Positions 4,959 through 57,024 of a stretch of 64,000 bases of DNA are shown here, piece after piece. Below the pieces are notes generated by a model. That model saw nothing but the letters and a program-made list of their open reading frames with translations. It had not been told where the DNA came from and searched no databases. Origin of the DNA: Candidatus Omnitrophota bacterium. Its GTDB lineage: Bacteria; Omnitrophota; Gorgyraeia; Zapsychrales; JANLHA01. Location of the stretch: positions 2,868 through 66,867 of the forward strand of contig JAHFFT010000001.1 of the NCBI GenBank assembly GCA_023247795.1, read 5' to 3'. Numbering within the stretch: the stretch's first letter is position 1; each line of letters begins with the position of its first letter. The position numbers were made by a program, and so were the translations under genes.

Positions 4959-4970
4959 GCGTGGACGATT

Positions 4971-6371: not shown

Positions 6372-7419
6372 GAAAGATGAGTTCCTTTGTTGTTGCTAAC
6401 TGACCTAAACGACTGATCTCACACGTCATATCCAGCGAACTTCTTGCAAATAAAATCCCTGGTTTGAAGGGCAATTCAAAATCACCTTTTTTCCCAGAGG
6501 CAATCATAATAGCCGCCTTGGGCATATTACAACCGGCCTTGGCAGCCAACTGAATCCAATTCGGAAAACGCGGCCGGATATCCGTCAAAACATATTGGTT
6601 CGTAGTATGGCTCTTCACAAATTCCAATTCGGCCGGGCCACACCATTGGATTTCTTTTAACACCTTCCTCGCCATATCATCCAAGATCTCATCTTGCGTG
6701 GTCATGCCAATCCACGTTGACCCGTTTCTCGATTTGACAATTTTTTTCATGCCGGCACAAGCAACAACCTGATGCCGACGATTTGTCAGAGCGGCGATGG
6801 AATACTCATCACCACTGATATACTGCTGTAAGACCAAGGGACTTCCCCAACTCTCAAAAAATCGGTTGCTAAAAACACCTGCTTCTTGCGTAGAATAAAC
6901 TAACTGCTGTTCGCCACTGGGACATTTAACGTAAAAAGGCGAATAGAAATTCAGTGCCAAACTGGCTAATTGAGCTTGATCCCACAAAGGCATCGTATAA
7001 GGAACACCGACTTCGATGTTAACGGCCCAATAAGGAATACTTTCGGTCCGTGCTTTTCTTAAACTCGCTTCGCTGGGAATGAGCATTTTTACACCAAGGT
7101 CCCGCAGATCCGGCTCGAGTTTGATCATCGATGGGATTTCAAATTCCAGATTCGGGATAAGAAAATTGTTCTTGGACGTATCAACAATTTCTTTCATCCG
7201 TGATAGGTAACGATCTTCCTCTTCCTGCGGATAAGGAACAACATAAACCGCATCCACAAGTTTATCCAAATAGGCAATGCTGTCCAATAATTCATATACC
7301 AGCGCAATGATTTTGACTTCGAAATCGGCTTCGTTGCGAAGACAGCGAATAACCCCTATTCCGGGAGCTGGATCGGCTCCGGCATTTAAGCCGGTGACAT
7401 AAATATGATACCGTGCCAT
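6361..7419 (-). CDS. ATP-grasp family ligase (paralogue 2)
   Basis: 352 aa. The N-terminal layout is shared with 7430..8518 (YVTGLNAGADPAPGIGVIRCL vs FTGVDSTENPYPGLSVLRAI). The C-terminal ELEFVKS...VLTDIRPRFPNW resembles the ATP-grasp E-x-N/D-x-R Mg/ATP site. Confidence 0.7.
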   Translation of the reverse strand: MARYHIYVTGLNAGADPAPGIGVIRCLRNEADFEVKIIALVYELLDSIAYLDKLVDAVYVVPYPQEEEDRYLSRMKEIVDTSKNNFLIPNLEFEIPSMIKLEPDLRDLGVKMLIPSEASLRKARTESIPYWAVNIEVGVPYTMPLWDQAQLASLALNFYSPFYVKCPSGEQQLVYSTQEAGVFSNRFFESWGSPLVLQQYISGDEYSIAALTNRRHQVVACAGMKKIVKSRNGSTWIGMTTQDEILDDMARKVLKEIQWCGPAELEFVKSHTTNQYVLTDIRPRFPNWIQLAAKAGCNMPKAAIMIASGKKGDFELPFKPGILFARSSLDMTCEISRLGQLATTKELIFHDS

Positions 7420-7429
7420 ATCGACGTTG

Positions 7430-8518
7430 TTATAAAGGTGTCTGTTCGTTACTCGATAACTGGATACTGCGCCAATTGAGCGATCCCTGAAGATTCAGTT
7501 GAACCAAATGATTAAAATCACAAAAGATGTCCTCAAAAACACGGCTGAACATAACACCCTTCTTATACTCCAGTTGCGGCTCTACGCGTTCGCCTAACGC
7601 CAGTTTGAGCGTGAGCAGCGGCAAATTCAAATTGCTTGACATCGTGGTGTATATCCAAGCGGGTAACCGGGCATTGATCTCAATGATAAATTTCTTATTG
7701 AAATACGGATTCTTGATGATTTCGAGTTCCATGGGGCCTTGCCATTGCAACGCCTTAACGACCTTGCTGGCCAATTCATGAAACTCTTCGCCATCAACGG
7801 TCACGCCGGCAAAAGCTTTACCAGAATTTGTGATCCCAATTTTTTTCATCACCACTTTGGCCACGATATCACTGTTCTGGTCGGCAACCAACGCGATATC
7901 ATATTCGTCTCCATCAACACATTCCTGAACAATGAGCGGCAATCCCCATTGATAGGAAAAACGATGAAAAAAAACCTGCGCCTCATCTCGGTAATAAACC
8001 TTCTGTGCGTCAATGATCGAGCCTTTGATCAATAATGGATAATGCAGCTCAACCGAATGTTGATCAATTTCCTGGGGATCGTTGATCACATAACTCTTCG
8101 GATGATCAAATTGATTTTTTTCACAAAATTCCCTTAAAAACGCTTTCGATCGGGCCTTAACTGCCGCTTCCGGCGGAACAAAAGTCTTGATCCCGATATT
8201 CCTCAATTTATCTGCCAAACGGGCATAGGTGGCAATCTCCGAATCTAAACACGGGATCAAAACATCGATTTTGGTTTGGCGATGGATATCCTCGATCCTG
8301 GGAAATAGATAATTCTCCGGTTCGGAAGGGAAGGGGATCTGATAAACTTCATCGATCAGATCATATTTGTAAAGACCGGTCGTTACGCTATCATAAGTAA
8401 AGACAATGATTTTTCCTAGAAACTCGCCGGATTCCTTAATGGCCCGCAGCACGCTCAAACCCGGATAAGGATTCTCCGTCGAGTCTACGCCGGTGAAGGC
8501 CACATTGCAGTCAATCAT
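7430..8518 (-). CDS. ATP-grasp family ligase (paralogue 1)
   Basis: 362 aa. YPLLIKGS, LIVQECVDGDEYDI and MELEIIKN...FIIEINARLPAW (an EINxR motif) are typical of the ATP-grasp fold. Confidence 0.75.
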   Translation of the reverse strand: MIDCNVAFTGVDSTENPYPGLSVLRAIKESGEFLGKIIVFTYDSVTTGLYKYDLIDEVYQIPFPSEPENYLFPRIEDIHRQTKIDVLIPCLDSEIATYARLADKLRNIGIKTFVPPEAAVKARSKAFLREFCEKNQFDHPKSYVINDPQEIDQHSVELHYPLLIKGSIIDAQKVYYRDEAQVFFHRFSYQWGLPLIVQECVDGDEYDIALVADQNSDIVAKVVMKKIGITNSGKAFAGVTVDGEEFHELASKVVKALQWQGPMELEIIKNPYFNKKFIIEINARLPAWIYTTMSSNLNLPLLTLKLALGERVEPQLEYKKGVMFSRVFEDIFCDFNHLVQLNLQGSLNWRSIQLSSNEQTPL

Positions 8519-8889
8519 TGCTTAATTCCAATTTCTAACTCGCGCAGTTGATAAAGCAGATCATGGATATCGGAAACTAAAATTCCTTCACTGACCTCAT
8601 ATTCTTGAGTGAGTTGTTTTGCTAAGTCCTCCAGCGAAAGCCCCTCTTTGATCCTGGCGATAATAAAAGAAGCGGTCGTATTTAAAGCATAGACCCGGCC
8701 TGATTTAGCGTCAAATAAAAACCCATGACCATCTTCCGAGATTTCCGTACTCACGTGCTCCGGGATCGAAATCACATAATTTCCTAAATCCTTAAATTGG
8801 CAATCCTTCTTATTATTTCGATTGCGGAAACGTTCCAGGATTTGATCGATATCCTCGATCTTTCCTTTCCTTTTGATATACAATTTCAT
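8515..8889 (-). CDS. PqqD-like (RRE-type winged-helix) small protein
   Basis: 124 aa. GFLFDAKSGRVYALNTTASFIIARIKEGLSLEDLAKQLTQEYEVS matches the PqqD-family pattern. There is a 4-nt overlap with the downstream ATP-grasp gene. Confidence 0.6.
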   Translation of the reverse strand: MKLYIKRKGKIEDIDQILERFRNRNNKKDCQFKDLGNYVISIPEHVSTEISEDGHGFLFDAKSGRVYALNTTASFIIARIKEGLSLEDLAKQLTQEYEVSEGILVSDIHDLLYQLRELEIGIKQ

Positions 8890-8895
8890 CGTACC

Positions 8896-11400
8896 TTATG
8901 CCCCTCTATTCAATTCCCCCAAACCGTTTAAGGCTCCCAAATGTCCTGGAACAATTTCCAAGGCTTTCATAAATCTTTGCTTTGCCGCACTTTTATCGCC
9001 CTTCTTCAAATCACACCAACCCAACGCGGTATAAGGATCGGCATAAATATCCTGCTCTTTATGCAGCTCGAGAAGTTGATTAAAATATCCGGCTGCCTTA
9101 TCATAATTTTTAGTGTAAAAGTAACTCCAGCCTAAATTATTCAATACCACACTCCATTTCAACCATCCGTCTTCCTTCTCCGGTTTCTTCGATAAGAGCG
9201 GTTCCAGTCGATCAATCGCCCCCTTATAATCACCCTGGATAAAATAGATCGCTCCTAAACCTAAAGAAGCGCTTTCCGAGGTTGGCTCCTTCGCTAATAC
9301 TTTTGCAAATGATTCGGAAGCCTTCTTATAAATGCCCTGATAATAATAACTCCATCCTAACCGGCTATAAAGATCAAACCAGCCCTTTTCTGCGGCAAGG
9401 ATCTTTTGAAAATCCTCCGTCATTACATAATCCGGATAAATGTCGATGGCTTTCGCAAAGGCTTCTTTAGCAGGATCCAAGTTTTTAACTTGATACTGAC
9501 TTAACCCCAAACCATAATAAGGATCGACCCAATAGGGGTTGATATCAATGGCCATTTGAAAGCTTTCCGCGGCCTTAGCGTAATCTTTGATCTTATAAGA
9601 ACTCCAAGCTAAAGCGGTCAAGGCGGAATAATTTTTTGGGCTTTCTGCCACGGCTTTCTCTAAATATTCTTTAGCGCCGACATAATCTTTCCTTTGAAAT
9701 AAAATATTGCCTAAACCACTCAGGGCATCGAGATTTTTAGGATATTCCGCCAATAATTCTCGGAATTCTTTCTCCGCACTATCCTCTTCCCCTAAACGAT
9801 AGTAACACCAACCGATCCCTCCCCGCATGGCCAAGGCCTTATCTTGCGGAATATTTTTACCAGCATTTTGCAGGTCATATTTAAATTGCTTCAAGGCCGA
9901 AAAATAATCTCCTTGATAATAATAACTCCAGCCCAAATCGGTCCGCCCATATTTGGCTTGATCAACGGCCAGCAAACCATTTAAGGCATCCGCATAGCTT
10001 GGATTGAGAGCGAGCACGGCTTTAAATTCTGATTCCGCATCATCAACCTTTTTCAACATATAATACGACCATGCCAATCCATCATGCGGATCAATCCAAT
10101 TAGGCTGATTCGTAACCGCCTTTTTAAACTCTTGTGCTGCTTCACTGTATTGTCCCAGTTTATAATCCGCCCACGCCAGGCTTGACTGGGCATCGCTTTG
10201 CACTAAATAGCTGGCAATGGTCCCGGGGATTTGGACATATTCGCTCACCGCCGGTAAAGTCGGATTCTCCTTTAACGATTGCTTAAAATATTTTGCAGCA
10301 TCTTCAAATTGACCCAATTTATAAGCGGCATAACCCAAACCCCTTAAGGTTTCGCCATTCTTTCCTAAAACTTTAGAAGCCTCATCAAATTCTTGGGCCG
10401 CGAGTTGAAAATACCCTTGTTGATAATAACTCCATCCAACCACATTATAGAGATCTTGCCAATCCGTCTGAATTTTGAGAACATTCTTAAATTGTTCATC
10501 GGCGACAAAAGGATAAATGTTGATGGCCGTCGTAAAATACTCCTTTGCCTTCGGGAAATCCTTCAAATCAAAATACGTCCAGGCCAAACCTTTATAAGGT
10601 TCAACCAAATAGGGGTTCAATTGTCGGGCCTTCTCAAACTCTGCTTTTGCCCTCTCAAAATCAGATTTGCGATTATAAATCCACCCGATCTTGCTTTGCA
10701 CATCCGGTTGATAAGCTTGAACATCAAGCGCTTTCTGCAAAAAAACCAAGGCCTGATCAAAATCATTCATCTCAAAATACGAAAAACCTATTCCTTTGAT
10801 GGCATCAAAACTATCCTTTTGCAGACTCAACACTTGCTCAAAATTATGAATGGCTTCCTGGTATTGCTTGTTGAAATGATACGACCATGCCAATCCAGTG
10901 TGAACCCTCCACAATTCTATATTCGGTAAACGTCCACTGGTATCAGCAACAATGGCTTCAAAGATAGTAATCGCCTTGCTATAATTCCCGGCATAATAAT
11001 ATTGCCAAGCACGATTAAAAGGGCGATAACGCCAAGCACTCACTTCTGCCATCCCGTTCAGGGAACCGGGGAAATATGGATAAATTTGTAGACATTTTTT
11101 AAAATTCTCTTCCGCAGTAACAAATTCGCCTTTTTGTAAATAATTCCATCCTAACCCATCATAGGGATCACACCAATCCGTGTGCTCCTGAACTTCTTTC
11201 TGAAATACCCCAATCGCTTGATCATATTGTTTATCATAATAAAGATCCCAAGCCTCTTGGGAAACGGTGGGCTCTTCCTTTTTATTGTTTTCCTCAGCCA
11301 CGGCCTTTTGAACATTGATGAAAACATTGATCAAAACAAAGATCGTCACAACGACAAAACATAACATCGTTTTACAGCTCATTAATTTTTTTAAACGCAT
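8896..11400 (-). CDS. Large TPR-repeat protein with N-terminal signal/anchor
   Basis: 834 aa. Hydrophobic N-terminus MLCFVVVTIFVLINVFINVQKAVA, followed by about 20 repeats of the W/G-WxY...A...F.KAL...P TPR pattern. Confidence 0.8.
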   Translation of the reverse strand: MRLKKLMSCKTMLCFVVVTIFVLINVFINVQKAVAEENNKKEEPTVSQEAWDLYYDKQYDQAIGVFQKEVQEHTDWCDPYDGLGWNYLQKGEFVTAEENFKKCLQIYPYFPGSLNGMAEVSAWRYRPFNRAWQYYYAGNYSKAITIFEAIVADTSGRLPNIELWRVHTGLAWSYHFNKQYQEAIHNFEQVLSLQKDSFDAIKGIGFSYFEMNDFDQALVFLQKALDVQAYQPDVQSKIGWIYNRKSDFERAKAEFEKARQLNPYLVEPYKGLAWTYFDLKDFPKAKEYFTTAINIYPFVADEQFKNVLKIQTDWQDLYNVVGWSYYQQGYFQLAAQEFDEASKVLGKNGETLRGLGYAAYKLGQFEDAAKYFKQSLKENPTLPAVSEYVQIPGTIASYLVQSDAQSSLAWADYKLGQYSEAAQEFKKAVTNQPNWIDPHDGLAWSYYMLKKVDDAESEFKAVLALNPSYADALNGLLAVDQAKYGRTDLGWSYYYQGDYFSALKQFKYDLQNAGKNIPQDKALAMRGGIGWCYYRLGEEDSAEKEFRELLAEYPKNLDALSGLGNILFQRKDYVGAKEYLEKAVAESPKNYSALTALAWSSYKIKDYAKAAESFQMAIDINPYWVDPYYGLGLSQYQVKNLDPAKEAFAKAIDIYPDYVMTEDFQKILAAEKGWFDLYSRLGWSYYYQGIYKKASESFAKVLAKEPTSESASLGLGAIYFIQGDYKGAIDRLEPLLSKKPEKEDGWLKWSVVLNNLGWSYFYTKNYDKAAGYFNQLLELHKEQDIYADPYTALGWCDLKKGDKSAAKQRFMKALEIVPGHLGALNGLGELNRGA

Positions 11401-11489
11401 ACTCTCCTCCTATGTTAATCTAAATCTGTTAAATAACTGCTCAAAATAGTTATCCTTGACAACAATGATCGTACGGGAAGTTTTTGTTC

Positions 11490-12611
11490 TTATAAAGAAT
11501 TGGTCTTTTGATCGACTTGCTCAAGTCCGGTGAGAGAACTCTTATACGAAGGAGTAAGAGCTAAGGCTTTATTGAACATCACTCGAGCAGCTTTCATACG
11601 TCTACGACTCGTTTTATTTTTTCCTTTGGCGGTCTTATCATTATCCCAGTAAAGATACGACCAACCGATCTTATCGTAAATTTCAGCATTTCTTTCATAC
11701 TTCAAAGCCTGTTTATAAATCCCTATGGCTTCTTGATATCGCTTTAAAGAAAACAAGCAATCTGCCCATTTGATTCGGGCGTCATTCCATTGCGGCTTCA
11801 GCCGAGTGGCCATTCGAAACTCTTTTAAGGCCTTTCCAAAATCCTGACGGCTAAAATTAAGATAACCTAATGCCCGATGAGCTTCCGGCTCAGTTTTAAC
11901 ATGCACGCCCCTTTGATATCGCATCCCTTTAACTAAGGCCCGCTGGAGATATTTTTCGGCAATCTCAACTTCTCCCTTTCGAAAATAACACCAACCCAGA
12001 CCTGCATAGGCATCAGAAGAATTAGAATCTATACTCAACGCTTGTTCAAAATAGTTAATGGCTTGGGCCCAATCTGATTTTTTAAAATTTGCCCAACCTC
12101 TCCCGGTATAAGCATCAACGACCTTAGGATCCACTAAAACCAAATCGCCAAACGTTTTGCTGGCACTCTCATAATCACCTTTACCAAAATAGGCCCACCC
12201 TAGCAAAGTCAAGGCCTCTGAACTCAAGGGATTCTGTCTCACTGCTTTCTCAAAATATTCAATGGCTTTCTCGTGATTGTTAACCGATAAATAATACGAC
12301 CCTTCTGAGGCATAACCTTTGCCTCGACGATCTCCGGTGGAAGTAAAAATGGGTTCTTCTCCTACATTAACAACGGTCATCGCCATTTCAACGGGCTTTG
12401 TTCCTATTTCATAAAGTGACTTAAAAAGTTCCGGTACCTGCTTGACATTCGTCATAGACTTCGCAACATCAACCGGTAGCTTCGCGATTCCCACAACCTC
12501 CTCTTTGACCAGTTTCGGCACTTTTTTAACGGTGGCAGCACAGCCGGTCATCATTCCTCCAGCCAGCAGCAGGGTGATGAATTGCAAACATGGGTATGAG
12601 GAAATTTTCAT
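11490..12611 (-). CDS. TPR-repeat lipoprotein
   Basis: Lipobox-like LLLAGGMMTGC at the N-terminus. Multiple TPR units (GWAYFGKGDYESA, GWANFKKSDWAQA, GWCYFRKGEVEIA). Confidence 0.75.
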   Translation of the reverse strand: MKISSYPCLQFITLLLAGGMMTGCAATVKKVPKLVKEEVVGIAKLPVDVAKSMTNVKQVPELFKSLYEIGTKPVEMAMTVVNVGEEPIFTSTGDRRGKGYASEGSYYLSVNNHEKAIEYFEKAVRQNPLSSEALTLLGWAYFGKGDYESASKTFGDLVLVDPKVVDAYTGRGWANFKKSDWAQAINYFEQALSIDSNSSDAYAGLGWCYFRKGEVEIAEKYLQRALVKGMRYQRGVHVKTEPEAHRALGYLNFSRQDFGKALKEFRMATRLKPQWNDARIKWADCLFSLKRYQEAIGIYKQALKYERNAEIYDKIGWSYLYWDNDKTAKGKNKTSRRRMKAARVMFNKALALTPSYKSSLTGLEQVDQKTNSL

Positions 12612-12628
12612 CGTAAGCCGTTCCTTCT

Positions 12629-14227
12629 TTAAAACTCGATATCCAAACCAAATTCCACTTGATAGGCGCCATCGGCCTCGCCATCCCGTCGAGGAGTAGG
12701 CGCGAATATGTTATTGGCGGCAGTATCGGCGCGGGTTTCCTTATAATAATCTCCCGGGAAAAAATATCCTGACAAAATACTAAACTTTATGGCTTTGGTG
12801 ATTTGATAACTAGCAAAGACATCCAATTCCTGGCCCAAGTCTTTTGAAAAAGTTTTTAAATTCCCATTGCCATCCAGACCCCATCCCGGTTCTTTTGAAC
12901 GCAAATACCAATAATCCACGCCGATATACCATTTTTCAAGTGGGGTATAATCAAATCCAACGGTCGAAGCAATCAAATTTTCAAACATGAAAGGGTCACC
13001 AAAGGTCCCGGGACGAGCGACGCCAAAATTGACCGCGTATCCGCCTGCCATTGCCACATAAGGACCAAACTGTTTCTGATAATGCGTATCGGTTAAATTG
13101 GTGTTTAATGGGGAAAAAACACTGAAGGCCTCATTTTCATTACTGGTGAGGGTAAGTTCATTATAATTCTGCGCGTTGAATCGGTTACCGGAGGCCATAA
13201 AAAATTTCGTCTTCGGTTTGAACGCCCCCAAATCATAACTGGCATCCGCAACCAAAAGATAACCTTTATGTTCGATATCATTTTGTGCCGTGTTGATGGC
13301 CTTCGCCTTTCCCAAATTTTGGTCCCCTTCAAACCCAAGATTCAGACGGTCAAAATTCAGTTTTAAATAAGCCCCTGGTGTCACAAGATCTTCGTTTTTC
13401 ACACGGGTGCTGAATCGACTTGCACGCGCACCTTCTGGTGTTCGATCCCTCAGCCAGCCGGTATAAAGTTGTAACCGTTGTTTACCCAATTTGAATGTCG
13501 TATCCGCCGTATAAAAGTAAGCATTGGTGTCATTCCAATCATTGACCTTCTCATGATCAATGACTTTTCCTAAATGAATACGATTATTCAGATCTTCTTT
13601 TTCCCAGTGGACATTCCAATCGAGTGATTCATTAACTCCAGAAAGGGTTAGCCCATAATTTTCATATTTTCCACCCAAGGCAATGTTATGACCAAGATCG
13701 CGTCCGTAAGGATACAGACCAAATTTGAAATTGACATCTTTCGTTGAATTCACCGGAACTTCCAGCCAGGTTTCTCTTAATCGAGGATATAAATCTGAGT
13801 TTTGGTACCAATGATACCGTCCAAATAAAGAGTTGATGCCACGGCTCCCATAAAGCGGGGCATCATAATCGGCGCGCCCCCTTCTTTCTACAAAAGAATA
13901 AAACTCAAGGCCGGAAAGATGGCGGAGATCAAAAGTAAAGTCATAAGCTAACCCAAGATAACTGGTCTTATCATTGTTATTCGCTAAATCAAGATCAACC
14001 GTATTGTTCACTAAATTATAAGACGTACGCAGGTGCGCTCCGGAATGAAATTTCCAATTTGATTCATCCAATAAAAAAGGATGTTTCTCAACATCCAAAT
14101 CTTTAACGTCTTTAAAATAACTCTGAGCATATATAGAGGAAGGCAGGGCAAATAAGGAAAGGAAAATAAAAATATTGACGAAAGGCTGAAGGAAAACTTT
14201 TTTACTTTTTTTGTTTTTACAAGTCAT
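12629..14227 (-). CDS. Outer-membrane beta-barrel protein (porin/exporter-like)
   Basis: The ORF-track start at 14269 is TTG. ATG 14227 gives MTCKNKKSKKVFLQPFVNIFIFLSLFALPSSIYA (signal peptide). Alternating amphipathic strands run throughout, and the C-terminus is FGLDIEF (aromatic terminal residue typical of OMPs). Confidence 0.65.
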   Translation of the reverse strand: MTCKNKKSKKVFLQPFVNIFIFLSLFALPSSIYAQSYFKDVKDLDVEKHPFLLDESNWKFHSGAHLRTSYNLVNNTVDLDLANNNDKTSYLGLAYDFTFDLRHLSGLEFYSFVERRGRADYDAPLYGSRGINSLFGRYHWYQNSDLYPRLRETWLEVPVNSTKDVNFKFGLYPYGRDLGHNIALGGKYENYGLTLSGVNESLDWNVHWEKEDLNNRIHLGKVIDHEKVNDWNDTNAYFYTADTTFKLGKQRLQLYTGWLRDRTPEGARASRFSTRVKNEDLVTPGAYLKLNFDRLNLGFEGDQNLGKAKAINTAQNDIEHKGYLLVADASYDLGAFKPKTKFFMASGNRFNAQNYNELTLTSNENEAFSVFSPLNTNLTDTHYQKQFGPYVAMAGGYAVNFGVARPGTFGDPFMFENLIASTVGFDYTPLEKWYIGVDYWYLRSKEPGWGLDGNGNLKTFSKDLGQELDVFASYQITKAIKFSILSGYFFPGDYYKETRADTAANNIFAPTPRRDGEADGAYQVEFGLDIEF

Positions 14228-14407
14228 TCTCAAAGATTGTTGAGATTCAAATTTTATAACATCTCGCAAACATTTTTTATCCTAAGCATTTTTCGTTTCA
14301 ATTGCAAGTTTTTTTTAAATTTTTTGTGGGACAGGCCAAAAATCCCGGGTATCAGGGATAAAAGATGTTGCTGGTAAAAGTCGTAAATCCTTTTTCTCGT
14401 CGAATGT

Positions 14408-14483: not shown

Positions 14484-14513
14484 GAATTCCTCGCAGCTAG
14501 CTGCGAGGAATTC
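14484..14513. repeat. Perfect 30-bp palindrome of the CCTCGCAG...CTGCGAGG family
   Basis: GAATTCCTCGCAGCTAGCTGCGAGGAATTC is its own reverse complement. Confidence 0.9.
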
Positions 14514-14580
14514 GCTCGAGTAAAAACTGAAGATCAGAGGTATCGTGGTTTAACAGCAAGGATAAAATTCAATACTTAAC

Positions 14581-14670
14581 TCAAGTCTCATGTCTCATCT
14601 CATATCGCAGGTCGCAAGTCATTTGTAACTTGCGACTTGGTACCTGGGACTTGTTACTTTGTCACTTCGC
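14581..14670. repeat. 3'-UTR repeat block: hairpin plus ACTTG/CAAGT heptad units
   Basis: GTCGCAAGT-CATTTGTA-ACTTGCGAC hairpin (14611..14636). ACTTG-type units at 14628, 14635, 14649, 14656 and 14663. The block lies directly after the stop at 14678. Confidence 0.6.
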
Positions 14671-14677
14671 CGTGATG

Positions 14678-15778
14678 TTAATTGGGTCGCGGACCATCAC
14701 TGCCAAGGCCGCCCGGCTGACCACCAACATGATTGGCGTTATTCAGACCCGCGCCGCCCAGACCAGGTCTTTGCGTACCCTGACTTGATAATACCCCAGG
14801 CTTCGGCATGACAGGACCGACAGGCCGATTGCCATTTAACTCTTGATGGCCGGCTCCTTGCCCTTCCATTTGGGGAGATTGGTCGGACTGCATATTCCGC
14901 ATTTGACCTTGTTCTTCTTGACTATGCTCTTGCATCGCTCCCTTCGGTGCTTCATGTTGTACTTTTATCCCTCGCATTTTCTCATACTCGCTTTTCATTT
15001 GTTCTCGACGATCTTGCTGCTCTTCATGAGACGCTTGCATTTTCTCTTGATGCTGCTCTTTCATTTCCTGCAGCTGTTCATGCTCAGCATCCATCTGCTC
15101 TCGATACTCCTGTTGCTCTTCACGAACCGCTTGCATTTTCTCTTGATGCTGCTCTTTCATTTCCTGCAGCTGTTCATGTTGCGCCTTCATTTCTTCTCGC
15201 TGTTGCTGAAATTGTTCTTTATAAGCCTCTGCGCGTTCCGAATTAGCTAACGGCGGTTTTTGGTTAGGCCCGCTTATCAGTGGTCTATTCATTTCGCCCA
15301 TTGAAGCATTGGGACGAGAACCTTCTTGCTGATCACCCATAGGGCCATTATCACGTTGCCCCATCTGATCAGGTTGATTCATTGGTTGCTGCGAACCTTG
15401 ACGGTCATTATCTGTTCGTGGACCAACCTGAGAATTGCCTTGTTCACCTTGCTGCGCACCCGATTGCGGACGATTTTGTTCTCCACCCATACGATTGCCC
15501 TGAGATCCACCCTGGCCTTGCATTCCCGATCCGTTGGGCCGATCGTTATTCATACCAGGATCTCCTCTTTGGCCTCCTGGACCGCCAGAACCACCAGGTC
15601 CACCTGCTCCGCCTTGACCACCTTGATGTCCAGCGTTCATACCCTGTCCCGGACCGCCATGTCCACCTGGACCTCCAGCTCCCGGACCACCACCCGGCCG
15701 CGGCCCTTGCTGGGCGAAAACCACACCCGAAAGCGCTAAGCAAAAAATTCCAATCAAAGCCATGATTCTCATTTTCAT
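14678..15778 (-). CDS. Secreted low-complexity G/P/Q/E/M/H-rich protein
   Basis: Signal peptide MKMRIMALIGIFCLALSGVVFAQQ. A good SD (AAGGAAAGG) precedes the ATG. Composition-biased throughout, with the internal repeat EQLQEMKEQHQEKMQA. Confidence 0.75.
   Translation of the reverse strand: MKMRIMALIGIFCLALSGVVFAQQGPRPGGGPGAGGPGGHGGPGQGMNAGHQGGQGGAGGPGGSGGPGGQRGDPGMNNDRPNGSGMQGQGGSQGNRMGGEQNRPQSGAQQGEQGNSQVGPRTDNDRQGSQQPMNQPDQMGQRDNGPMGDQQEGSRPNASMGEMNRPLISGPNQKPPLANSERAEAYKEQFQQQREEMKAQHEQLQEMKEQHQEKMQAVREEQQEYREQMDAEHEQLQEMKEQHQEKMQASHEEQQDRREQMKSEYEKMRGIKVQHEAPKGAMQEHSQEEQGQMRNMQSDQSPQMEGQGAGHQELNGNRPVGPVMPKPGVLSSQGTQRPGLGGAGLNNANHVGGQPGGLGSDGPRPN
15032..15178. repeat. Intragenic direct repeat (51 bp identical, 96-bp period)
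   Basis: 15032..15082 and 15128..15178 both read CGCTTGCATTTTCTCTTGATGCTGCTCTTTCATTTCCTGCAGCTGTTCATG. Confidence 0.9.
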
Positions 15779-15816
15779 TGTTTGTTCCTTTCCTTAATAT
15801 TAAACGCCTGTTCAAT

Positions 15817-15845
15817 AAAAAAACCTATTCCCCAAAGAGAATAGG
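15817..15845 (-). terminator. Intrinsic terminator (riboswitch expression platform)
   Basis: Minus-strand RNA is CCUAUUC-UCUUUGGG-GAAUAGG followed by U7. It lies between the aptamer and the SD/ATG of 14678..15778. Confidence 0.75.
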
Positions 15846-15859
15846 CTTAATTCAAAACA

Positions 15860-15945
15860 CTTGATTCGGTAATCAGGCTATCCTCTCTTAAAGGACCCTT
15901 GACTTTGCGCCCCACTGTTACCAGTGGTTTGCCTTTTCGTCAGAC
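15860..15945 (-). promoter_or_regulatory. c-di-GMP-I (GEMM-I) riboswitch aptamer
   Basis: Minus-strand RNA is ACGAAAAGGCAAACCACUG-GUAA-CAGUGGGGCGCAAAGUCAAGGGUCC...GGAUAGCCUGAUUACCGAA. This carries the GGCAAACC / GNRA-capped hairpin / GCGCAAAG / UUACCGA core of GEMM-I. Confidence 0.8.
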
Positions 15946-16018
15946 CCGCGAATTGTTAAAGAACATTTTAAATATAAAATATTTTGCCGGTAAAAATCAA
16001 GTGACAAAAAAATATTTC

Positions 16019-19000
16019 CTAAAATTCTTGTAAAGACTTAACTCTTTTTGTTTCTTGATGATAGCTCAATTGCTCTTCGTTCGGTGGAACCGTTTTCCCG
16101 ATCAGAGCTGGTAAATTGGTCACAGGCTTGATCTCCATGATGATCGGCAGAAAGCCATCAAATTGTAAATTTTTAATCTGCTCCGGATCAAAATCAAACT
16201 TGATTGCTGGCCCTTCATTTTGAATCATCAGCTCCAAATTTTCCGGATTCAAGTCGATACCACCAACCTCCGATGAAGCATTTTGCGGAGCAATGGTAAT
16301 CGCCGACACCTGTGGATTATTTGTATTACCTAGAAAAAAGGAATCCTTCATCCCCGGAGCTAATACCAAATTTTGGTCTAATAAATCAAGATCATTGCTG
16401 TCTCCGTTTTCTTTCTTAACTTGATTTTTAGCAATGTCCCAGACCCCGCCAAACCCAAAATCGAAAGCCTTGCCAGCCCACCCAGGGTATCGAGCAAAAT
16501 CAATCTGAACAGCATTATCTTCTGCCATAACCGGCTTTCCAGTCTCTGGATCTCTGACCATCACTTTTCCCGTGGGATCAAAATAAAGTCCTAAATCCAA
16601 ATGCCAATTGACAATTTCTTGCGCGGTCTGCCGACTTTCACCGTTTGTTACCGCAAATGCCTTGGATTCAATCAACTGATTGATTTGGGCGGAAGCACTT
16701 TCTGACAAATCATGAGCGCTTTCAGAACGAGGCTTGGCATACCAAGATCTTTGAATCTCACCGGTTTCCGGGTCAAAGAGGGCCATGACCGCCTCCTGCC
16801 TTTTCCATTTGTATTGACCGGTAACGGTCGAATAAGTATCACTGCTGTAATAAAGTTCCATCCGATTATCACGCGAAGCCAAAACATAAATACGGTCGTG
16901 CATAAAAAACGCTTGATGGAACAGAAACAAATTGGGTTTACCTTCGGTTGTATTTTGACGGTTCTGCCTGACATATCTGGCAAATGCCTCTTTTGTGGGA
17001 GCATCCTTCGCGTTGATCACCTTGAATGAGTAATCCCCGCTGTTCACTTCGCCGATGACGCGATCTTCATCCCTGCGCCATTGAGCTTTTTTGTTTTTCT
17101 TGATCAGAAGTCTCTTGACCCGCCCCAATTCAACCGCCTTGGAAAATTTATAGCTCCGATATTTGTAGATCAATTCCGAAATGACGTATTTGAGATCCAC
17201 CACCTTCTCTGCCTTCTCAAATTGATAAACCAAAACGAGGTAATGCGTGATCAAAGCAAGAATATCGGCCTGATCACCCTCAGTTTTTACACCGAGTTCT
17301 TTGTCAACATCACGGATAAAATCCTGATCAATATACTCAGCCAGTTTTAGAATCCCATCTTTATCTTTCCCTAAAAAATATTTTTTCATCTCATCATTAA
17401 CTTCGATCGCCATTATTGTGTTCAACCGTTCTATTCTCCTTTCAAGCTTTAGTATTTCCTCTTGACCAAAATTTTCCTTTAACTGTAATTTTAGTAGCAC
17501 TAATTCATGCCTTCGTTCCGCGTTAGTCATTAATATGCTGCGGACTGGCACTTGAGTAAATTTGTGATACCCATTCGCCGTTAGGACCGGTGCTAAACGA
17601 TTCGCCTGAGCAAAAAAGTCAGCCCGATCTGACGGGTTTGTTGTAAGAACGATATCCAAGGCCAAAGCAATGAGATTGAGAATATTCCGGTAGCGGTCTG
17701 GATCAGATTGAAAAATCTTAGCCAAAGGAAAATCGACATCTAACTTGAAACGATTTCTTTCTTTTTCATCATTTTGGACAACAATCTTTAAAACGTTGCC
17801 GGGGCTGCGCTTTTTTATCGTTTTCTTGATTCGATCTCGATCGATATCCGCTTTCGTGATCTCATTGATCGCCATGGTTCCTTCTGTTCCAGCGGTCCCC
17901 TCGATTTCATCCTCGAATGCTTCAGGAACAGGTACGAGAGGGATATCCGACTTGGATTCTTTATGGCCTTCGACAATGGCAGCAATCGTTTGCTGTTGAA
18001 AATCTGTGAGATCTTCATCAACACCTGGTTTCGGTGTTCGAACAGGAAACCCTTTGCCAATCTCGGCCAAGACGGGTTTCAATTCACTCCATTCCTTAAT
18101 AGGCAATTTAGTAAATCGAGAACTTTCTCTCAATAAAACCAACCGCGAATAAATCCTGCCGACATGGCTTTCTGGTTCCAGTTCATCCAGTTCATGCAGA
18201 TCGATGGCTTCCAGCAACTCCGCGATATCATCCCTCGTTGCCTCAATCCTTTCCAAGTCACTCGCCACCGTCTGGCGAAAATACTCCATGACAACCTCTG
18301 ACGATTCCAAAATTTTTTTCATAGCGAACATCGCTTCTTCATCATCCATTTGATCACGGACCGAATTCATCCCTCTCGCGAAATAGCGAGTACATACCTC
18401 TGGTTCTCTTTCAAATTTCCCCAAAATCTTCGCAATCAACCCCTCACGTAATGCTGCTGCTAATTTTTGCACGTTCACACTGAATTTATTTTCCCTTCGA
18501 ATCATATCAAATGTTATAAGCTGACTGGCCGTAAGCTCTTGCTGACCTTTCCCACGTAAAATCTTGACCGCTTGCGGCAATTGCTTTTGTTGCGTTAGAA
18601 TGACGGCTAAAATCAATCGCTTTTGATCATCGGTCAATTGCGCGCTTTCTTTGATTCGCTTTTTTTCATCCAAATAATCCTGATTGGCATCAGCGACCAG
18701 GAACTTAACCGCGCGTTGCAAATATTCTGGCATTGCCTTGAGCATTTTATTATTTTGTAAAACATATCTTTGGTTTCCAGAATCGGGATCAAAAATTCTT
18801 CCGCAGCGCGTTGCGATGATTTTAAAAGGATACGAATCCCCGACCGAATCGTTATGAGTGGGTTCAAAATCAATCTTGCCCTCATCATCAATTCGACCTT
18901 CCAGCATCGTGGGCGTATACTCACTATGCATCGCCTCGGTTATCAAAACCTTTTCAACGGATTGATGGAACCGGCTTCTTTGATTTATCGCCAAGCTTTG

Positions 19001-22000
19001 AATTTTTTTGTCCGAAAGCGTAAACGCGCTTTTCCACGCAACACCGATGCCATTTTTCGATTTCAAATCTTGAATCTGAAACCGATACCCTTGCTGTTCA
19101 CTGCCCAAAACTTGAACTGAAAAATTCCTTCCCGAAAGCTTATCGTCATTCGCGAATAATAGCTCTGCCCCAGCACCCCTACCAACGATAAATTCCTTAC
19201 CTACGCTAAATGCCCTCACATCCCCAGCTAGTGCTGTGTCAATTGTTTTATCTGGAAACGCCTGTAGGTAGGCACGATCACCCGCAACCCAAAGCCGATA
19301 CCAACCTGTTCCGGCTTGGATCCAAACATCATCAATCAACTCTTGCATTCCCGTATCCAAGACCTTCTCTTCCCTCGTTTTCATATTTCTATCGTCTAAG
19401 ACTTGATCTTTAGTTTTGACCATCCTTTCCCATTCCACGGTGATGGATCTATCTGTATAAGTCCCTGTCTTAACTCGATAATTCTCTGTCCCTGGAATAG
19501 GGTCTACGACGATATAACAATGTTCCGATTGAAGGTTGGGATCATTCGGGAAATAAAGTTCATCGATCTGCTTATTTTTTCCAAAAGCATGGAGCTCTCC
19601 TAAACTTATTTTGTAAACTTTCGATTCGTTTGAGGGCGGACCATTCTTGATGTCATGCTGCAGGACCCGGACCTGGTTGTTCACAACCCGAATACTGTAC
19701 CAAAATTTTCCACCCTCGGGCTGGATCCACTGGACCCTACCGGGCAACAAAACAAATTCAACCGGTGCCGGAGTTTGCGATTCTCCCCGCCTATTGTTCG
19801 TCGGAGCCAAAACAACCGGCTTGCCCGCTTTTGTTTTCATATACCTTGCTGTTGCTCCTACTTTGGGAGCTGAATTAACCACAGCAGCATTGTCCATCGA
19901 TCTTTGAATGCCAATCAGATTGGATAAATTCTGATAGACACGGTGATAAAATCTTGCGTCTTGAGGAAAAAAGTCGGAGTCATAAATAAGACGGTTTGCC
20001 CACCCCAATGATAACCAATCCTTTTTCCGCAATTCGCTCATGATTTCAGCCTTTTCCACGAGACTTAAAACTTTCTCTTGTTTGAAATAATTTAAGGCTG
20101 CGTCATAATCATTTTTTAAAAGCGCCCCTAACAATTTAAAAGTTGCGTCGTTTTCTTTAGAATCACTTTGCATTTCACGCAAATATTGCACCAAATGATC
20201 CGCAGAAACTTGTTGAGGATATCTCTCTTGTAATTTCGCTTTCACGCGATTTTTAACTCGCAAAAAATTTTCGGTCGCATGTTCACCAAGCAAATAAGAA
20301 CGCTGCAACTCAGGTGTTTTCATGAAATTGAGCATTAAAGCATTGTCCACCGTACCAAAATAAGGATGAGCCTCTAGCGCATCCATATAACTACTCATTT
20401 TAGCAACGACTGCATCAAAGTCGTCGAAATCACCAGCGCTATACCCATCCTTCATGAGTGCCTCGGCAATGCCCTCTATCATTCGATCTTCATCAGGATT
20501 TTGAGATTCCACTGCGGTACCGATGGTGCTGACTTTATCTTGACGACCCGCGTTGGAATCAAGCAGTTGCTCCCGGTCCTGCTCGGTATATGCCCCGGTC
20601 CCCGTTCGTTGATCCGCCGTGACCCATTCTGCCGGTTGTTCCAGCAGTCCTAACTGCTCTCTGGCCCGTTTGATTTTGACCCGCCCATTGATTTCACTCA
20701 GCTCGTGCTGTTCGACCGCCTCGGTCATATCGTCGCTGAAACCGAGGACAATCCACTCTCCCCGGACCTTATCGAAATAGTTGATCGCCTTGATCCCGGC
20801 CTTGGCTCCGGTTTTACTGCTCATATGGTTGATCACCCATTTATCAAAAACTTTTCCTAATTCTGTTTCTTTCGCCCCGCGATCAATGCGGATGACCTTG
20901 ACTTTGTAGTTTAAGTCCTTTTGATTGATAACTTGCTGCCCCTCATAATCCAAGGTCTCGCCTGCTGCCACCTGCTGCTCAATCGACGGAGAAGCTGTTG
21001 GCAAAAACCCATTCTGGTCAAGAAGCCCAACGATATGATTCAAAATCTGGTCTTCACTGGCGTTTTCAGGAAGTTTTTTCCCCTTGGCAACGGTGTTCAA
21101 CAAACGAATCATCCGGTTATAATAGGTTACCGGGGTGACAACCGCGGAGGCATTATAAACTTTTTGGTTTTCTAATTGCGCGGAGGTTAAATTCTGAGCT
21201 TCTGATGAGACATCAATGGTGGTGACACCACTAACCTCTGTTCCTTTAAATCCTCCGGAAAAATATTTCCTCGGGATGGAGGCTTGAAGATACGGATCAT
21301 AATCTTCTTTGATGTAGTTATAAACCCCCTGCTTGAAGGCCGCGATATACTGCTCATAAATCTGCTGTTGACCGTCCTTGTCATCTGAATCAACTCCGAC
21401 GACCTTATTTTTATCCACATAAATGCTGTCGAGAATGCTTTCGCGCAACTTCTTTTTGAACCAGGTCGCGAGGATCATGGCGTTGTAAATCTGGCGCAAT
21501 TGGGCAAAATTCTGACCTTCATTGACTTCTTTTTCGATCGTCGGTAAAACGATTTTCTTGACGATGTCTGAAGAAAAAGTACTGACGCTACCAACATCCG
21601 TGTTAGTCAATGACTCCGTCCCTAAATTTTTATTGCCTCGATTGGAATCCAGAGCGAGATAATCTTCTTCCAACATCACCTGCAAATGACTTTCAATCAC
21701 AAAAGCGGTCGCGCCATTTTCATAGACCCGGGCCTTGTCAGGAACAATCCAGACTTTATTGAAGGTATTGATCGGGACGTTGGTGGTACCATATTCCTGA
21801 TAGGCCTTTTCATAAATTTCCTTCCAAAACTGCGCACCCAGCTCTTTTTCCGGGTAGATCAAAGAGGCAGTGATTTGCTTTAACAGATAGTCCTGGGCCA
21901 AAAGATCGCGCCCCATCTCGGTCTGACCAAACTGTTCGGGAATGATCCGATTTTCTTCATAGGGCGACAAATTGACCCACAAGTCCTTTTCCGGGACCGT

Positions 22001-22300
22001 CAGGGTTGCTAAAAAATATTTGATCATCTTTTGCGATTCTTCCTTCAAGGCTTGATCAGACAGCGTTTGGTCCCCAGGTGTTACGATGAAATCAAACCGA
22101 AAAGGGTTATTAGGGAAAACCTTCACCCCCTTTAACAAGGCCGGCGCAAAGGCCTGGCTTAGCCCGACCATCGAGCCTGCCTGCGGAAGATTGAGCGGTT
22201 GAATTTGCGCGAAACCATTCCCGGGGCTGATCAGATTGAAAAAAAAAGTGAAAATAATCAGCAGATTGATACTTCGATATTTTTTGATTTGCTTTGCCAT
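16019..22300 (-). CDS. Giant secreted protein (2093 aa), function unknown; two FHA-like segments and a C-terminal domain shared with 60206..64000
   Basis: Single uninterrupted ORF. Signal peptide MAKQIKKYRSINLLIIFTFFFNLISPGNGFA. FHA-like stretches are encoded at ~19427..19600 and ~19033..19190 (FIVGRGAGAELLFANDDKLSGRNFSV...IQDLKSKNGIGVAW). The C-terminal sequence is VGGIDLNPENLELMIQNEGPAIKFDFDPEQIKNLQFDGFLPIIMEIKPVTNLPALIGK. Confidence 0.8.
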   Translation of the reverse strand: MAKQIKKYRSINLLIIFTFFFNLISPGNGFAQIQPLNLPQAGSMVGLSQAFAPALLKGVKVFPNNPFRFDFIVTPGDQTLSDQALKEESQKMIKYFLATLTVPEKDLWVNLSPYEENRIIPEQFGQTEMGRDLLAQDYLLKQITASLIYPEKELGAQFWKEIYEKAYQEYGTTNVPINTFNKVWIVPDKARVYENGATAFVIESHLQVMLEEDYLALDSNRGNKNLGTESLTNTDVGSVSTFSSDIVKKIVLPTIEKEVNEGQNFAQLRQIYNAMILATWFKKKLRESILDSIYVDKNKVVGVDSDDKDGQQQIYEQYIAAFKQGVYNYIKEDYDPYLQASIPRKYFSGGFKGTEVSGVTTIDVSSEAQNLTSAQLENQKVYNASAVVTPVTYYNRMIRLLNTVAKGKKLPENASEDQILNHIVGLLDQNGFLPTASPSIEQQVAAGETLDYEGQQVINQKDLNYKVKVIRIDRGAKETELGKVFDKWVINHMSSKTGAKAGIKAINYFDKVRGEWIVLGFSDDMTEAVEQHELSEINGRVKIKRAREQLGLLEQPAEWVTADQRTGTGAYTEQDREQLLDSNAGRQDKVSTIGTAVESQNPDEDRMIEGIAEALMKDGYSAGDFDDFDAVVAKMSSYMDALEAHPYFGTVDNALMLNFMKTPELQRSYLLGEHATENFLRVKNRVKAKLQERYPQQVSADHLVQYLREMQSDSKENDATFKLLGALLKNDYDAALNYFKQEKVLSLVEKAEIMSELRKKDWLSLGWANRLIYDSDFFPQDARFYHRVYQNLSNLIGIQRSMDNAAVVNSAPKVGATARYMKTKAGKPVVLAPTNNRRGESQTPAPVEFVLLPGRVQWIQPEGGKFWYSIRVVNNQVRVLQHDIKNGPPSNESKVYKISLGELHAFGKNKQIDELYFPNDPNLQSEHCYIVVDPIPGTENYRVKTGTYTDRSITVEWERMVKTKDQVLDDRNMKTREEKVLDTGMQELIDDVWIQAGTGWYRLWVAGDRAYLQAFPDKTIDTALAGDVRAFSVGKEFIVGRGAGAELLFANDDKLSGRNFSVQVLGSEQQGYRFQIQDLKSKNGIGVAWKSAFTLSDKKIQSLAINQRSRFHQSVEKVLITEAMHSEYTPTMLEGRIDDEGKIDFEPTHNDSVGDSYPFKIIATRCGRIFDPDSGNQRYVLQNNKMLKAMPEYLQRAVKFLVADANQDYLDEKKRIKESAQLTDDQKRLILAVILTQQKQLPQAVKILRGKGQQELTASQLITFDMIRRENKFSVNVQKLAAALREGLIAKILGKFEREPEVCTRYFARGMNSVRDQMDDEEAMFAMKKILESSEVVMEYFRQTVASDLERIEATRDDIAELLEAIDLHELDELEPESHVGRIYSRLVLLRESSRFTKLPIKEWSELKPVLAEIGKGFPVRTPKPGVDEDLTDFQQQTIAAIVEGHKESKSDIPLVPVPEAFEDEIEGTAGTEGTMAINEITKADIDRDRIKKTIKKRSPGNVLKIVVQNDEKERNRFKLDVDFPLAKIFQSDPDRYRNILNLIALALDIVLTTNPSDRADFFAQANRLAPVLTANGYHKFTQVPVRSILMTNAERRHELVLLKLQLKENFGQEEILKLERRIERLNTIMAIEVNDEMKKYFLGKDKDGILKLAEYIDQDFIRDVDKELGVKTEGDQADILALITHYLVLVYQFEKAEKVVDLKYVISELIYKYRSYKFSKAVELGRVKRLLIKKNKKAQWRRDEDRVIGEVNSGDYSFKVINAKDAPTKEAFARYVRQNRQNTTEGKPNLFLFHQAFFMHDRIYVLASRDNRMELYYSSDTYSTVTGQYKWKRQEAVMALFDPETGEIQRSWYAKPRSESAHDLSESASAQINQLIESKAFAVTNGESRQTAQEIVNWHLDLGLYFDPTGKVMVRDPETGKPVMAEDNAVQIDFARYPGWAGKAFDFGFGGVWDIAKNQVKKENGDSNDLDLLDQNLVLAPGMKDSFFLGNTNNPQVSAITIAPQNASSEVGGIDLNPENLELMIQNEGPAIKFDFDPEQIKNLQFDGFLPIIMEIKPVTNLPALIGKTVPPNEEQLSYHQETKRVKSLQEF

Positions 22301-56367: not shown

Positions 56368-57024
56368 TTACTTCTTTGCAAAATACTTGGCTGCTTTATC
56401 TTTGCCGCCTAGCCCATAAGCCAGGGCAAGAGCAAGCACCACACCGCCAAAAAGAATATAGAACGGGGTGCCGACAAAGATCTCGCCGAACCCAAGTTCG
56501 ATGACCGTTACCTTGATGGCATAGATCGTAATGGCCCATCGAGTTACGCGTTCATAGATCTTTGGCTTGGGAAAACCGACGTGCGTGGTGATGACATAAA
56601 TGACGCTTGCAACCACCTTCGCTATGATTAAGCCCAACGCCAAAGCTAATACGGCTGCGACAACCTGCGGCAAATAAGCCACAGTGCCAGAGATCATGCC
56701 GCCCGACATCGTCACTCCGAGGTGATCAACCGTCATCAAAACAAAGATGACCATAACCACCAAGTGGACCAATGAAGCAACCAGATCACTGAATTTATGC
56801 TTTACCCCACCTTTATGAAGAGCCCCTGACAAGCCAATCTTGTCAGAAAGAATGTCAAACTTGAGCTCTGTCAATAATCGGTGAAAGATAACGCGCAGCA
56901 CTTTAGCCACAAAAATACCGACTAATAGAATTATTAGTGCGCTGACCAAAGTGGGGACGTAACTCGCTACCTTATAGACCATGTCTCGAAACGGTGACAG
57001 TAATAAAGTATCGATTGTAGTCAT
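56368..57024 (-). CDS. Small integral membrane protein with MscS-N-terminal-like conserved TM helices
   Basis: ATG 57024 is preceded by AAAGGAGGGG. The ORF-track start at 57081 would lie inside the leader terminator. LVSALIILLVGIFVAKVLRVIFHRLL resembles the conserved TM helix of mechanosensitive-channel N-termini. No MscS beta-domain is present. Confidence 0.6.
   Translation of the reverse strand: MTTIDTLLLSPFRDMVYKVASYVPTLVSALIILLVGIFVAKVLRVIFHRLLTELKFDILSDKIGLSGALHKGGVKHKFSDLVASLVHLVVMVIFVLMTVDHLGVTMSGGMISGTVAYLPQVVAAVLALALGLIIAKVVASVIYVITTHVGFPKPKIYERVTRWAITIYAIKVTVIELGFGEIFVGTPFYILFGGVVLALALAYGLGGKDKAAKYFAKK

Follow-up and report, generated by a model that had tools for sequence, protein, structure and literature searches.

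A giant gene of 2093 aa ends with its stop at 16019 in a 64-kb stretch of an uncultured Omnitrophota genome (hereafter the window, meaning the whole of that stretch), and a 366-aa open reading frame follows it on the minus strand. The features of the spacer, of the open reading frame, and of what lies beyond it are as follows, in the direction of minus-strand transcription.

15971..16000, minus strand: promoter-like element TTGATT-18 nt-TATATT (consensus scan, 9/12 matches)
15862..15942, minus strand: GEMM-I (c-di-GMP-I) aptamer (Rfam match, helix pairs, and covariation)
15933, minus strand: G20 equivalent, unpaired and directly 5' of the G-C/C-G mini-helix (read from the sequence)
15912..15927, minus strand: P1a hairpin CCACUG-GUAA-CAGUGG with a GNRA-type loop, the GUAA lying at 15918-15921
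15906, minus strand: A47 equivalent (RF03167 alignment, consensus ACGC-G-AAg vs window GCGC-A-AAG)
15871..15904, minus strand: P1b, 4 + 3 + 6 bp with loop UAAGA (pair check and alignment)
15877..15888, minus strand: aptamer side of a candidate antiterminator (the AAGAGAGGAUAGC region, P1b loop and 3' strand), predicted to pair with 15834-15846
15869, minus strand: C92 equivalent, in the unpaired A-C junction (A91-C92) that links the 3' strands of P1b and P1
15817..15848, minus strand: intrinsic terminator, 12-bp stem AAGCCUAUUCUC / GGGAAUAGGUUU, loop UUUG, U7 at 15817-23 (terminator scan)
15787..15795, minus strand: Shine-Dalgarno-like AAGGAAAGG, separated from the ATG by 8 nt
14678..15778, minus strand: putatively regulated open reading frame of 366 aa, ATG at 15778-15776 (translation)
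14484..14638, minus strand: two strong hairpins after the open reading frame, one of 9-10 bp at 14609-14638 and one a perfect 30-nt palindrome at 14484-14513
3870-14269: conserved porin cluster, with gene order as in four related contigs

The aptamer is real, and its recovery is far beyond chance. An Infernal search of the window (64 kb, both strands, 4227 families) gave a minus-strand match at 15864-15942 with 61.8 bits and an E value of 3.5e-12, and a strict aptamer pattern matched once in the window and not at all in 100 shuffles. The core reads, in order, ACGAAAAGGCAAACC, P1a (CCACUG/CAGUGG), GGGGCGCAAAG, P1b, and UUACCGAA; rereading the sequence reproduced exactly the minus-strand GEMM-I core, GUAA-capped P1a, and 3' element that the initial annotation had described. 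At gathering threshold, the Rfam scan of the window returned three matches, namely this one, a tRNA, and a further GEMM-I element at 57145-57227 (RF01051, 73.4 bits), and thus two GEMM-I elements lie within 64 kb, as had been proposed. PyrR-site and other sub-threshold Rfam matches over the region were set aside as noise (26 bits vs 54 needed). It had also been proposed that no GGDEF, EAL, or PilZ protein is encoded nearby, and Pfam found none of the three, nor HD-GYP, among all window ORFs of at least 150 aa and 10 of the 16 intervening ORFs of 55-149 aa. The sole gene in the window with even a loose relation to c-di-GMP encodes an NrnA-like DHH/DHHA1 protein at 43489-44460. Elsewhere in the phylum GGDEF does occur, fused to the N-terminal module of giant proteins (P0036, P0073, and P0097 in our set).

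The predicted fold is that of the class throughout. P1 is formed by UGA-CG and CG-(AA)-UCA, five base pairs with the usual AA bulge, and is more fully defined here than by Rfam. J1/2 consists of AAAA followed by G20, and a 2-bp GC/GC mini-helix is also present, as are A47-A48. P1b is of the short type without a GAAA-tetraloop receptor, yet is longer than the Rfam alignment has it, as GUCCUU pairs with GAGGAU around the UAAGA loop; its irregularities are a bulged A (15900) and an internal AG (15879-15878). All 21 of the pairs tested in P1a, the GC/GC mini-helix, and P1b are standard. When the element was aligned with 110 aptamers from other genomes (111 in all), 96.9% of the cells in the mini-helix, P1a, and P1b held standard pairs, and double-change cells numbered 310, vs 83 +/- 8 in shuffles and at most 79 with slid partners. 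The covariation score of the same alignment was 0.412, vs 0.132 for shuffles and at most 0.072 for slid controls, a figure that measures the contribution of the free positions, many alignment columns being fixed by the search pattern. The covarying P1a pairs are the four variable ones in the 111 sequences, and departures from the C-G consensus are compensatory (U-A at columns 42/76 and A-U at columns 45/74). Three variants of the window element (a J1/2 of 4 nt, the loop GUAA, and GGGGCGC) are each also found among the other aligned aptamers and at 50 metagenome loci. By fold, covariation, and ligand-contacting nucleotides, we assign the element to the canonical c-di-GMP-I (GEMM-I) riboswitches, in their common short-P1b subtype, a class that is already known.

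What the riboswitch would control is a single gene, and that gene is real: it has a ribosome-binding site and a signal peptide, and in a separate, independent ENA assembly of this genome a gene is called at the equivalent start, 241 nt past the end of the giant gene. The initial annotation had placed AAGGAAAGG at 15795-15787 ahead of the ATG at 15778, which the sequence bears out, and the Shine-Dalgarno-like element is free rather than sequestered in the predicted folds. It had further described the product as a secreted low-complexity protein, and the open reading frame directly downstream is indeed predicted to have both properties. The N terminus is a Sec-type signal peptide (MKMRIMALIGIFCLALSGVVFA followed by QQ) with cleavage after VFA. 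The mature protein is 19% G, 17% Q, 10% E, 8% P, and 6% M, and aromatic and aliphatic residues are almost absent. In a single-sequence AlphaFold2 model, the signal helix and one E/Q/K/M-rich helix of about 94 residues (180-273, pLDDT > 90) are the sole parts predicted to be ordered, and the long helix holds two copies of EHEQLQEMKEQHQEKMQA. No relatives were recovered. The 366-aa protein matched no Pfam or NCBIfam family, NCBIfam hits to it amounting to weak coiled-coil noise; an exact look-up gave no match; no homologue was found among 5.8e9 proteins at an E value of 1e-3 or below, nor when HMMER was run exhaustively against 1.84e9 representatives; and tblastn against 175 loci gave composition-driven Gly-rich matches only, which disappeared with a composition filter. 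We nominate this exported, mostly disordered protein without known relatives as the predicted c-di-GMP-controlled product.

How c-di-GMP would control the gene turns on the hairpin between aptamer and start codon. The initial annotation gave this hairpin as CCUAUUC-N8-GAAUAGG plus U7; it is present, and its stem is in fact 12 bp with a 4-nt loop. The stem spans 15848-15821 and starts 13 nt past the last P1 base (15862), or 15 nt past the end of the Rfam match (15864), leaving aptamer and terminator without overlap. At equilibrium, every predicted fold of the full leader contains aptamer-like helices together with the terminator hairpin. Because the best structure of the complete leader always includes the terminator, any regulation must be kinetic, and equilibrium folding looks alike for an ON and an OFF switch. 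During transcription a different structure may have its chance. Folding of 128-134-nt transcripts, or of a leader whose terminator 3' arm is blocked, gives as the best prediction an antiterminator of 12 bp with one bulge, in which the aptamer-side strand pairs with the 5' arm and the loop U's of the terminator (15834-15846). Formation of the antiterminator needs the upper part of P1b to be unfolded.

We propose that c-di-GMP acts by holding P1b closed. Binding of c-di-GMP would keep the aptamer folded, P1b included, the terminator hairpin would form, and transcription would end ahead of the gene, leaving it OFF at high c-di-GMP. In the ligand-free RNA, 15877-15888 (loop and 3' strand of P1b) would instead pair with the 5' arm of the terminator as it emerges, and the resulting 12-bp antiterminator would let polymerase read through, turning the gene ON at low c-di-GMP. 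The bound state should terminate because the folded aptamer and the terminator can coexist, and an OFF switch is predicted because the antiterminator requires upper P1b to open. On this modeling we lean, by somewhat more than an even chance, toward the OFF direction; the rest of the probability goes to the reverse polarity and, in smaller part, to the absence of a kinetic switch or to some other mode. That the locus as a whole is a canonical short-P1b c-di-GMP-I riboswitch leading a single-gene unit, with the proposed OFF mechanism, we judge to be quite probable from the sequence features assembled here.

The complementarity on which the antiterminator rests was compared with chance in several ways. 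The duplex is predicted at -13.7 kcal/mol, a value that includes the loop bases of the terminator and that was reached by 4.3% of shuffled aptamers (p = 0.043) and, among the 121 foreign aptamers listed, by 1.7%. With the arm alone, leaving out the loop bases, p rose to 0.15-0.19. Complementarity between P1b and the 5' arm of the terminator was not enriched over 21 other aptamers with terminators (median z of -0.49; p <= 0.05 in 2 of the 21). The second riboswitch of the window has an analogous pairing of P1b with its terminator 5' arm, with p from 0.016 to 0.2.

Statistically weak complementarity leaves some room for the opposite polarity, in which c-di-GMP would promote read-through and a high level of it would mean production of the exported protein. 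Biofilm and matrix functions are usually induced by c-di-GMP, and an exported low-complexity protein would suit such a role. The Bc2-controlled collagen adhesin is one example of an adhesin under a c-di-GMP riboswitch (PMC4933901). Moreover, a long imperfect helix between leader and linker appears in some prefix folds and could serve a more complex expression platform. The geometry of the locus, however, speaks for OFF. The terminator begins 13 nt beyond P1, a distance at which the bound aptamer is fully compatible with it; neither manual inspection nor folding found a bound-aptamer or extended-P1 structure that sequesters either arm of the terminator; and the sole alternative pairing found to block the terminator requires that P1b unfold. 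We therefore consider an ON switch unlikely, though a serious contender, and retain the OFF switch as the preferred direction.

Where transcription of the gene begins bears on a second alternative, in which the riboswitch lacks a dedicated promoter and controls whether transcription of the 2093-aa giant gene continues into the orphan gene. The mRNA of the giant gene would then also receive a conditional 3' end from the terminator, an arrangement compatible with the main explanation. No terminator-like site was found by the terminator scan between the giant gene stop (16019) and the aptamer, and a passage in bioRxiv 10.1101/617340 supplies a precedent in Vc2, a GEMM-I aptamer that acts on the 3' end of the RNA upstream of it. 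The promoter-like element in that same spacer is a weak match, which also leaves room for intercistronic control. Two overlapping candidates share the score of just 9/12 in an AT-rich region, and Omnitrophota promoters are uncharacterized; weak promoter-like hexamers extend over 16007-15965. Against intercistronic control stand the three overlapping promoter-like sites themselves, which lie 20-45 nt upstream of the aptamer, and the unrelated insertions found between ftsA and the porin cluster in related genomes, which suggest independent gene cassettes. Intercistronic control is doubtful on balance, and we favor a unit that begins in the spacer and is led by the riboswitch. At its other end, the two hairpins at 14484..14638, both without a U-tract, probably mark where the riboswitch-controlled unit stops and transcription would terminate. 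A promoter-like site at 14437-14408, assigned to the porin gene, comes after both.

The genes beyond that boundary are conserved, and the riboswitch cassette is not. Porin orthologues with 64-72% identity occur on four related contigs, and in all four the gene order is kept: porin, TPR, TPR, PqqD, ATP-grasp, ATP-grasp, pyridoxal phosphate (PLP) decarboxylase, and a urea-transporter-like gene. Upstream of the porin the contigs differ, with HIT, an IS110 transposase, or an SdrD_B giant protein in that place. The orphan ORF and the GEMM-I element are absent at all four orthologous porin loci, and the strict aptamer pattern found no match to the riboswitch-gene cassette in JGI metagenomes. The giant gene was of no help as a synteny anchor, as it had no relative in 185k species genomes, and giant-protein homologues share just the N-terminal 15-34% of its length. 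Homologues of the 2093-aa protein and of the porin belong to Candidatus Omnitrophota/Omnitrophica wherever they are named, apart from two distant porin homologues (38-39% identity). Since the four related loci carry neither the ORF nor the GEMM-I element, we read the cassette as a lineage-specific insertion, not a conserved feature of a regulon, and the porin cluster as a separate unit. Control of the conserved porin/TPR/PqqD/ATP-grasp/decarboxylase cluster by the riboswitch was considered and rejected on the same four loci, which have the cluster without the element.

That the aptamer is a nonfunctional relic and the hairpin merely the terminator of the giant gene is highly improbable: our searches found no orthologous copies in which purifying selection could be seen, but the conserved core nucleotides and every helix pair tested have been kept, departures from consensus are compensatory, and the element stands in the correct orientation and position ahead of an ORF with a ribosome-binding site.

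Which ligand the aptamer would bind can be read from three positions. In c-di-GMP-I riboswitches, G20 recognizes G-alpha of c-di-GMP, C92 forms a Watson-Crick pair with G-beta, and A47 takes part in recognition (PMC5888326). Vc2 numbers were assigned here by base position relative to the G21-C46/C22-G45 mini-helix. The mapping of 15933, 15906, and 15869 to G20, A47, and C92 also draws in part on the Vc2 sequence. The predicted pocket is G/A/C, the canonical one, and not G/G/C (GGC), A/A/C (cGAMP), or U/A/U (UAU), and c-di-GMP is the expected ligand. A cGAMP riboswitch (GEMM-Ib) was rejected, as it needs A at position 20, where the window has G (15933). The c-di-GMP-I-UAU variant, whose name we take to denote U at positions 20 and 92, was rejected as well, the window having G (15933) and C (15869).

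The Rfam label is seemingly at odds with that pocket. The initial annotation had proposed a covariance search with RF01051; the match to the clan stood at 61.8 bits, and the top model was RF03167, "c-di-GMP-I-GGC" (gathering score, 59), instead of RF01051. Only the best member of clan CL00126 was kept in that output, and two lower-scoring overlapping matches were omitted. We infer that the window aptamer would also score above the 35-bit threshold of RF01051, because comparable short-P1b aptamers score 56-66 bits on that model. At the position of A47, the consensus of RF03167 is a conserved G (ACGC-G-AAg) and that of RF01051 an A (ACGC-A-AAg), and we take the GGC name to refer to the G at the position equivalent to Vc2 A47.

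How other short-P1b aptamers are labeled was surveyed with a scaffold pattern that allows A or G at position 47, which gave at least 119 loci over 185k species genomes. Among the matches listed, position 47 was A in 121 of 121 short-P1b aptamers and G in none, and the hosts included Chloroflexota, Actinomycetota, Methylomirabilota/Rokubacteria, Nitrospirota, Firmicutes, and others, as well as Deltaproteobacteria-type MAGs (among them Myxococcales, Bradymonadales, and Desulfurivibrionaceae). When 18 of the listed loci were run through Rfam, RF03167 was assigned to 18 of 23 GEMM-I matches (59-77 bits), and the remaining few were labeled RF01051 (45-77 bits). The window aptamer exceeds the RF03167 threshold just as 18 of 23 matches in unrelated, A47-bearing genomes do. 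Because canonical A47 aptamers of other genomes receive the same label, we regard it as an artefact of clan competition that is general for short-P1b aptamers and that carries no information on the ligand. A true c-di-GMP-I-GGC variant, sensing something other than c-di-GMP, would account for RF03167 being the best clan member in cmscan, but the defining G is absent (A at 15906), G20 and C92 are canonical, and RF03167 is likewise the top model for canonical A47 aptamers of many phyla; we hold such a variant to be highly improbable. Rfam 15 clan competition routinely gave canonical short-P1b aptamers of our test set the "GGC variant" label (18 of 23), and the A47 position should be checked before a variant ligand is deduced from RF03167.

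The finding adds one more c-di-GMP-I riboswitch and leaves the mode of action of the class unchanged. Omnitrophota is a phylum with almost no experimental biology, and at least two c-di-GMP-I riboswitches in one uncultured genome of it point to a c-di-GMP regulon. We further speculate that the orphan protein is a lineage-specific output of c-di-GMP and that the riboswitch terminator is at once a ligand-dependent 3' end of the giant gene, a combination that, taken jointly, we hold to be improbable. If it were true, the orphan protein could be, for example, a gel or an attachment factor, at the surface or in the periplasm, that is switched off at high c-di-GMP, and c-di-GMP would be linked to the giant-protein family characteristic of the phylum.

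Among known systems, the element is closest to the c-di-GMP-I riboswitches of RF01051 exemplified by Vc2 and Cd1. It shares with them the three-helix junction of P1, GNRA-capped P1a, and P1b, the conserved GGCAAAC...CGCAAAG...AGCC...ACCG core with G20, A47, and C92, and placement in a 5' leader. Its platform resembles the intrinsic-terminator control of the Cd1 type of Clostridioides difficile. According to Sudarsan et al. 2008, Cd1-type members reportedly use an intrinsic terminator with c-di-GMP as an OFF signal. Vc2 of Vibrio cholerae has an 11-nt GAAA-tetraloop receptor, whereas the short P1b of the window element has none, and the window element has G (GGGGCGC) in place of Vc2 A43, which precedes the second mini-helix strand on its 5' side. 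The window element also differs from the RF01051 type in its GUAA loop and in a J1/2 of 4 nt instead of 5, and from RF01051 examples in its host (Omnitrophota) and its target (an orphan gene). The c-di-GMP-I-GGC variant, reportedly defined by Weinberg et al. 2017 in PNAS, has the same scaffold with a short P1b and differs in having G, where the window has A, at position A47. The 3'3'-cGAMP riboswitch of Geobacter (GEMM-Ib) shares the GEMM-I fold, and a passage in PMC6140456 makes cGAMP selectivity depend on A at position 20, where the window element has G. Finally, a comparison is offered by the window itself. The element at 57145-57227 belongs to the same family and lies on the same strand, with a terminator-type platform and a predicted pairing of P1b with the terminator 5' arm. 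Unlike the element at 15862-15942, it has a GAAA loop and the canonical CCUAAG/UAUGG receptor in a longer P1b, and it precedes a small membrane protein with a mechanosensitive-channel TM-helix domain.

Rfam assigned RF03167, "c-di-GMP-I-GGC," to canonical short-P1b c-di-GMP-I aptamers in 18 of 23 matches, which came from 18 unrelated genome loci; cited here for the label are the scaffold-pattern scan loci L012, L014, L017, L019, L024, L030, L031, L041, L061, L063, L072, L091, L103, L105, and L119. The assignment was the outcome of clan competition in Rfam 15, and the variant-defining position was A, not G, in 121 of 121 aptamers listed by the pattern scan. Pipelines that trust the RF03167 label face an annotation pitfall. 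The other GEMM-I element of the window was matched by RF01051 and precedes a membrane protein gene.

57145-57227, minus strand: first GEMM-I element (RF01051, 73.4 bits)
56368-57081, minus strand: membrane protein of 237 aa, preceded by that element

This aptamer combines a GAAA loop with the canonical CCUAAG/UAUGG receptor and has its own terminator at approximately 57083-57114, the 5' arm of which is complementary to the 5' strand of P1b. The membrane protein carries the conserved TM-helix domain of mechanosensitive channels (PF05552).

On either side of the orphan gene that follows the riboswitch lie a giant gene and a conserved gene cluster, the latter beyond a spacer of approximately 450 nt between the orphan and porin genes.

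16019-22300, minus strand: giant signal-peptide protein of 2093 aa
14609-14638, minus strand: hairpin of 9-10 bp, in the spacer
14484-14513, minus strand: perfect 30-nt palindrome, GAATTCCTCGCAGCTAGCTGCGAGGAATTC, in the spacer
3870-14269, minus strand: conserved 8-gene cluster

No Pfam domain was found in the 2093-aa protein. Relatives share 15-34% of the query, approximately 350 aa in most matches, and the shared part is 38-66% identical across more than 3,400 proteins of 1,200-3,500 aa, Omnitrophota in every case where the source gives a name. The remainder of the relatives consists of unrelated domains, including phosphoglucomutase, UGPase, PGK, PGI, methyltransferases, response regulator, GGDEF, and a UbiB kinase with an M48 peptidase. 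The protein and its relatives look like a modular giant-protein family found phylum-wide.

The 8-gene cluster encodes an Alginate_exp-like porin, two TPR proteins, PqqD, two ATP-grasp enzymes, an Orn/DAP/Arg decarboxylase, and a urea-transporter-family protein. It may be a system for peptide modification (RiPP-like) or one related to polyamines. Gene order is identical in four related metagenome contigs (L120, L121, L123, and L124), and the DNA upstream of the porin gene is different in each. Neither the palindrome nor the hairpin in the spacer is followed by a U-tract, and each is possibly a terminator, an RNA stabilizer, or a protein-binding site.

We note other features of the window. MurC and Ddl are fused in a single 789-aa ORF (27264-29633, minus strand) and are separate genes in L121 (235-2630); in both, the dcw cluster ends with ftsA, and no ftsZ is adjacent. 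The NrnA-like DHH/DHHA1 protein at 43489-44460 (minus strand) scored 138 bits against an NrnA equivalog cutoff of 350 and is the one gene of the window that could conceivably be linked, via pGpG or pApA degradation, to cyclic-dinucleotide turnover. Positions 57539-63997, with the window's lowest GC (0.39), hold two convergent, overlapping AAA_14/DUF4143 ATPase genes, which adjoin an ORF of at least 1,263 aa that reaches the window end and bears domains of the ART-PolyVal and methyltransferase types. The genes present resemble those of a mobile element or defense system.

Among metagenome loci, giant proteins were encoded downstream of GEMM-I aptamers at L134, L143, and L160, the last with a Peptidase_C39 domain. 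IS200-like Y1_Tnp genes lay directly 3' of terminator-bearing aptamers at L136, L140, L152, L156, L159, and L166, with the identity confirmed by Pfam at L152 and L156, and the aptamers of both groups share the GUAA loop and 4-nt J1/2 of the element at 15862-15942. Such recurrent pairing of a c-di-GMP riboswitch with a Y1-transposase-like gene is unusual.
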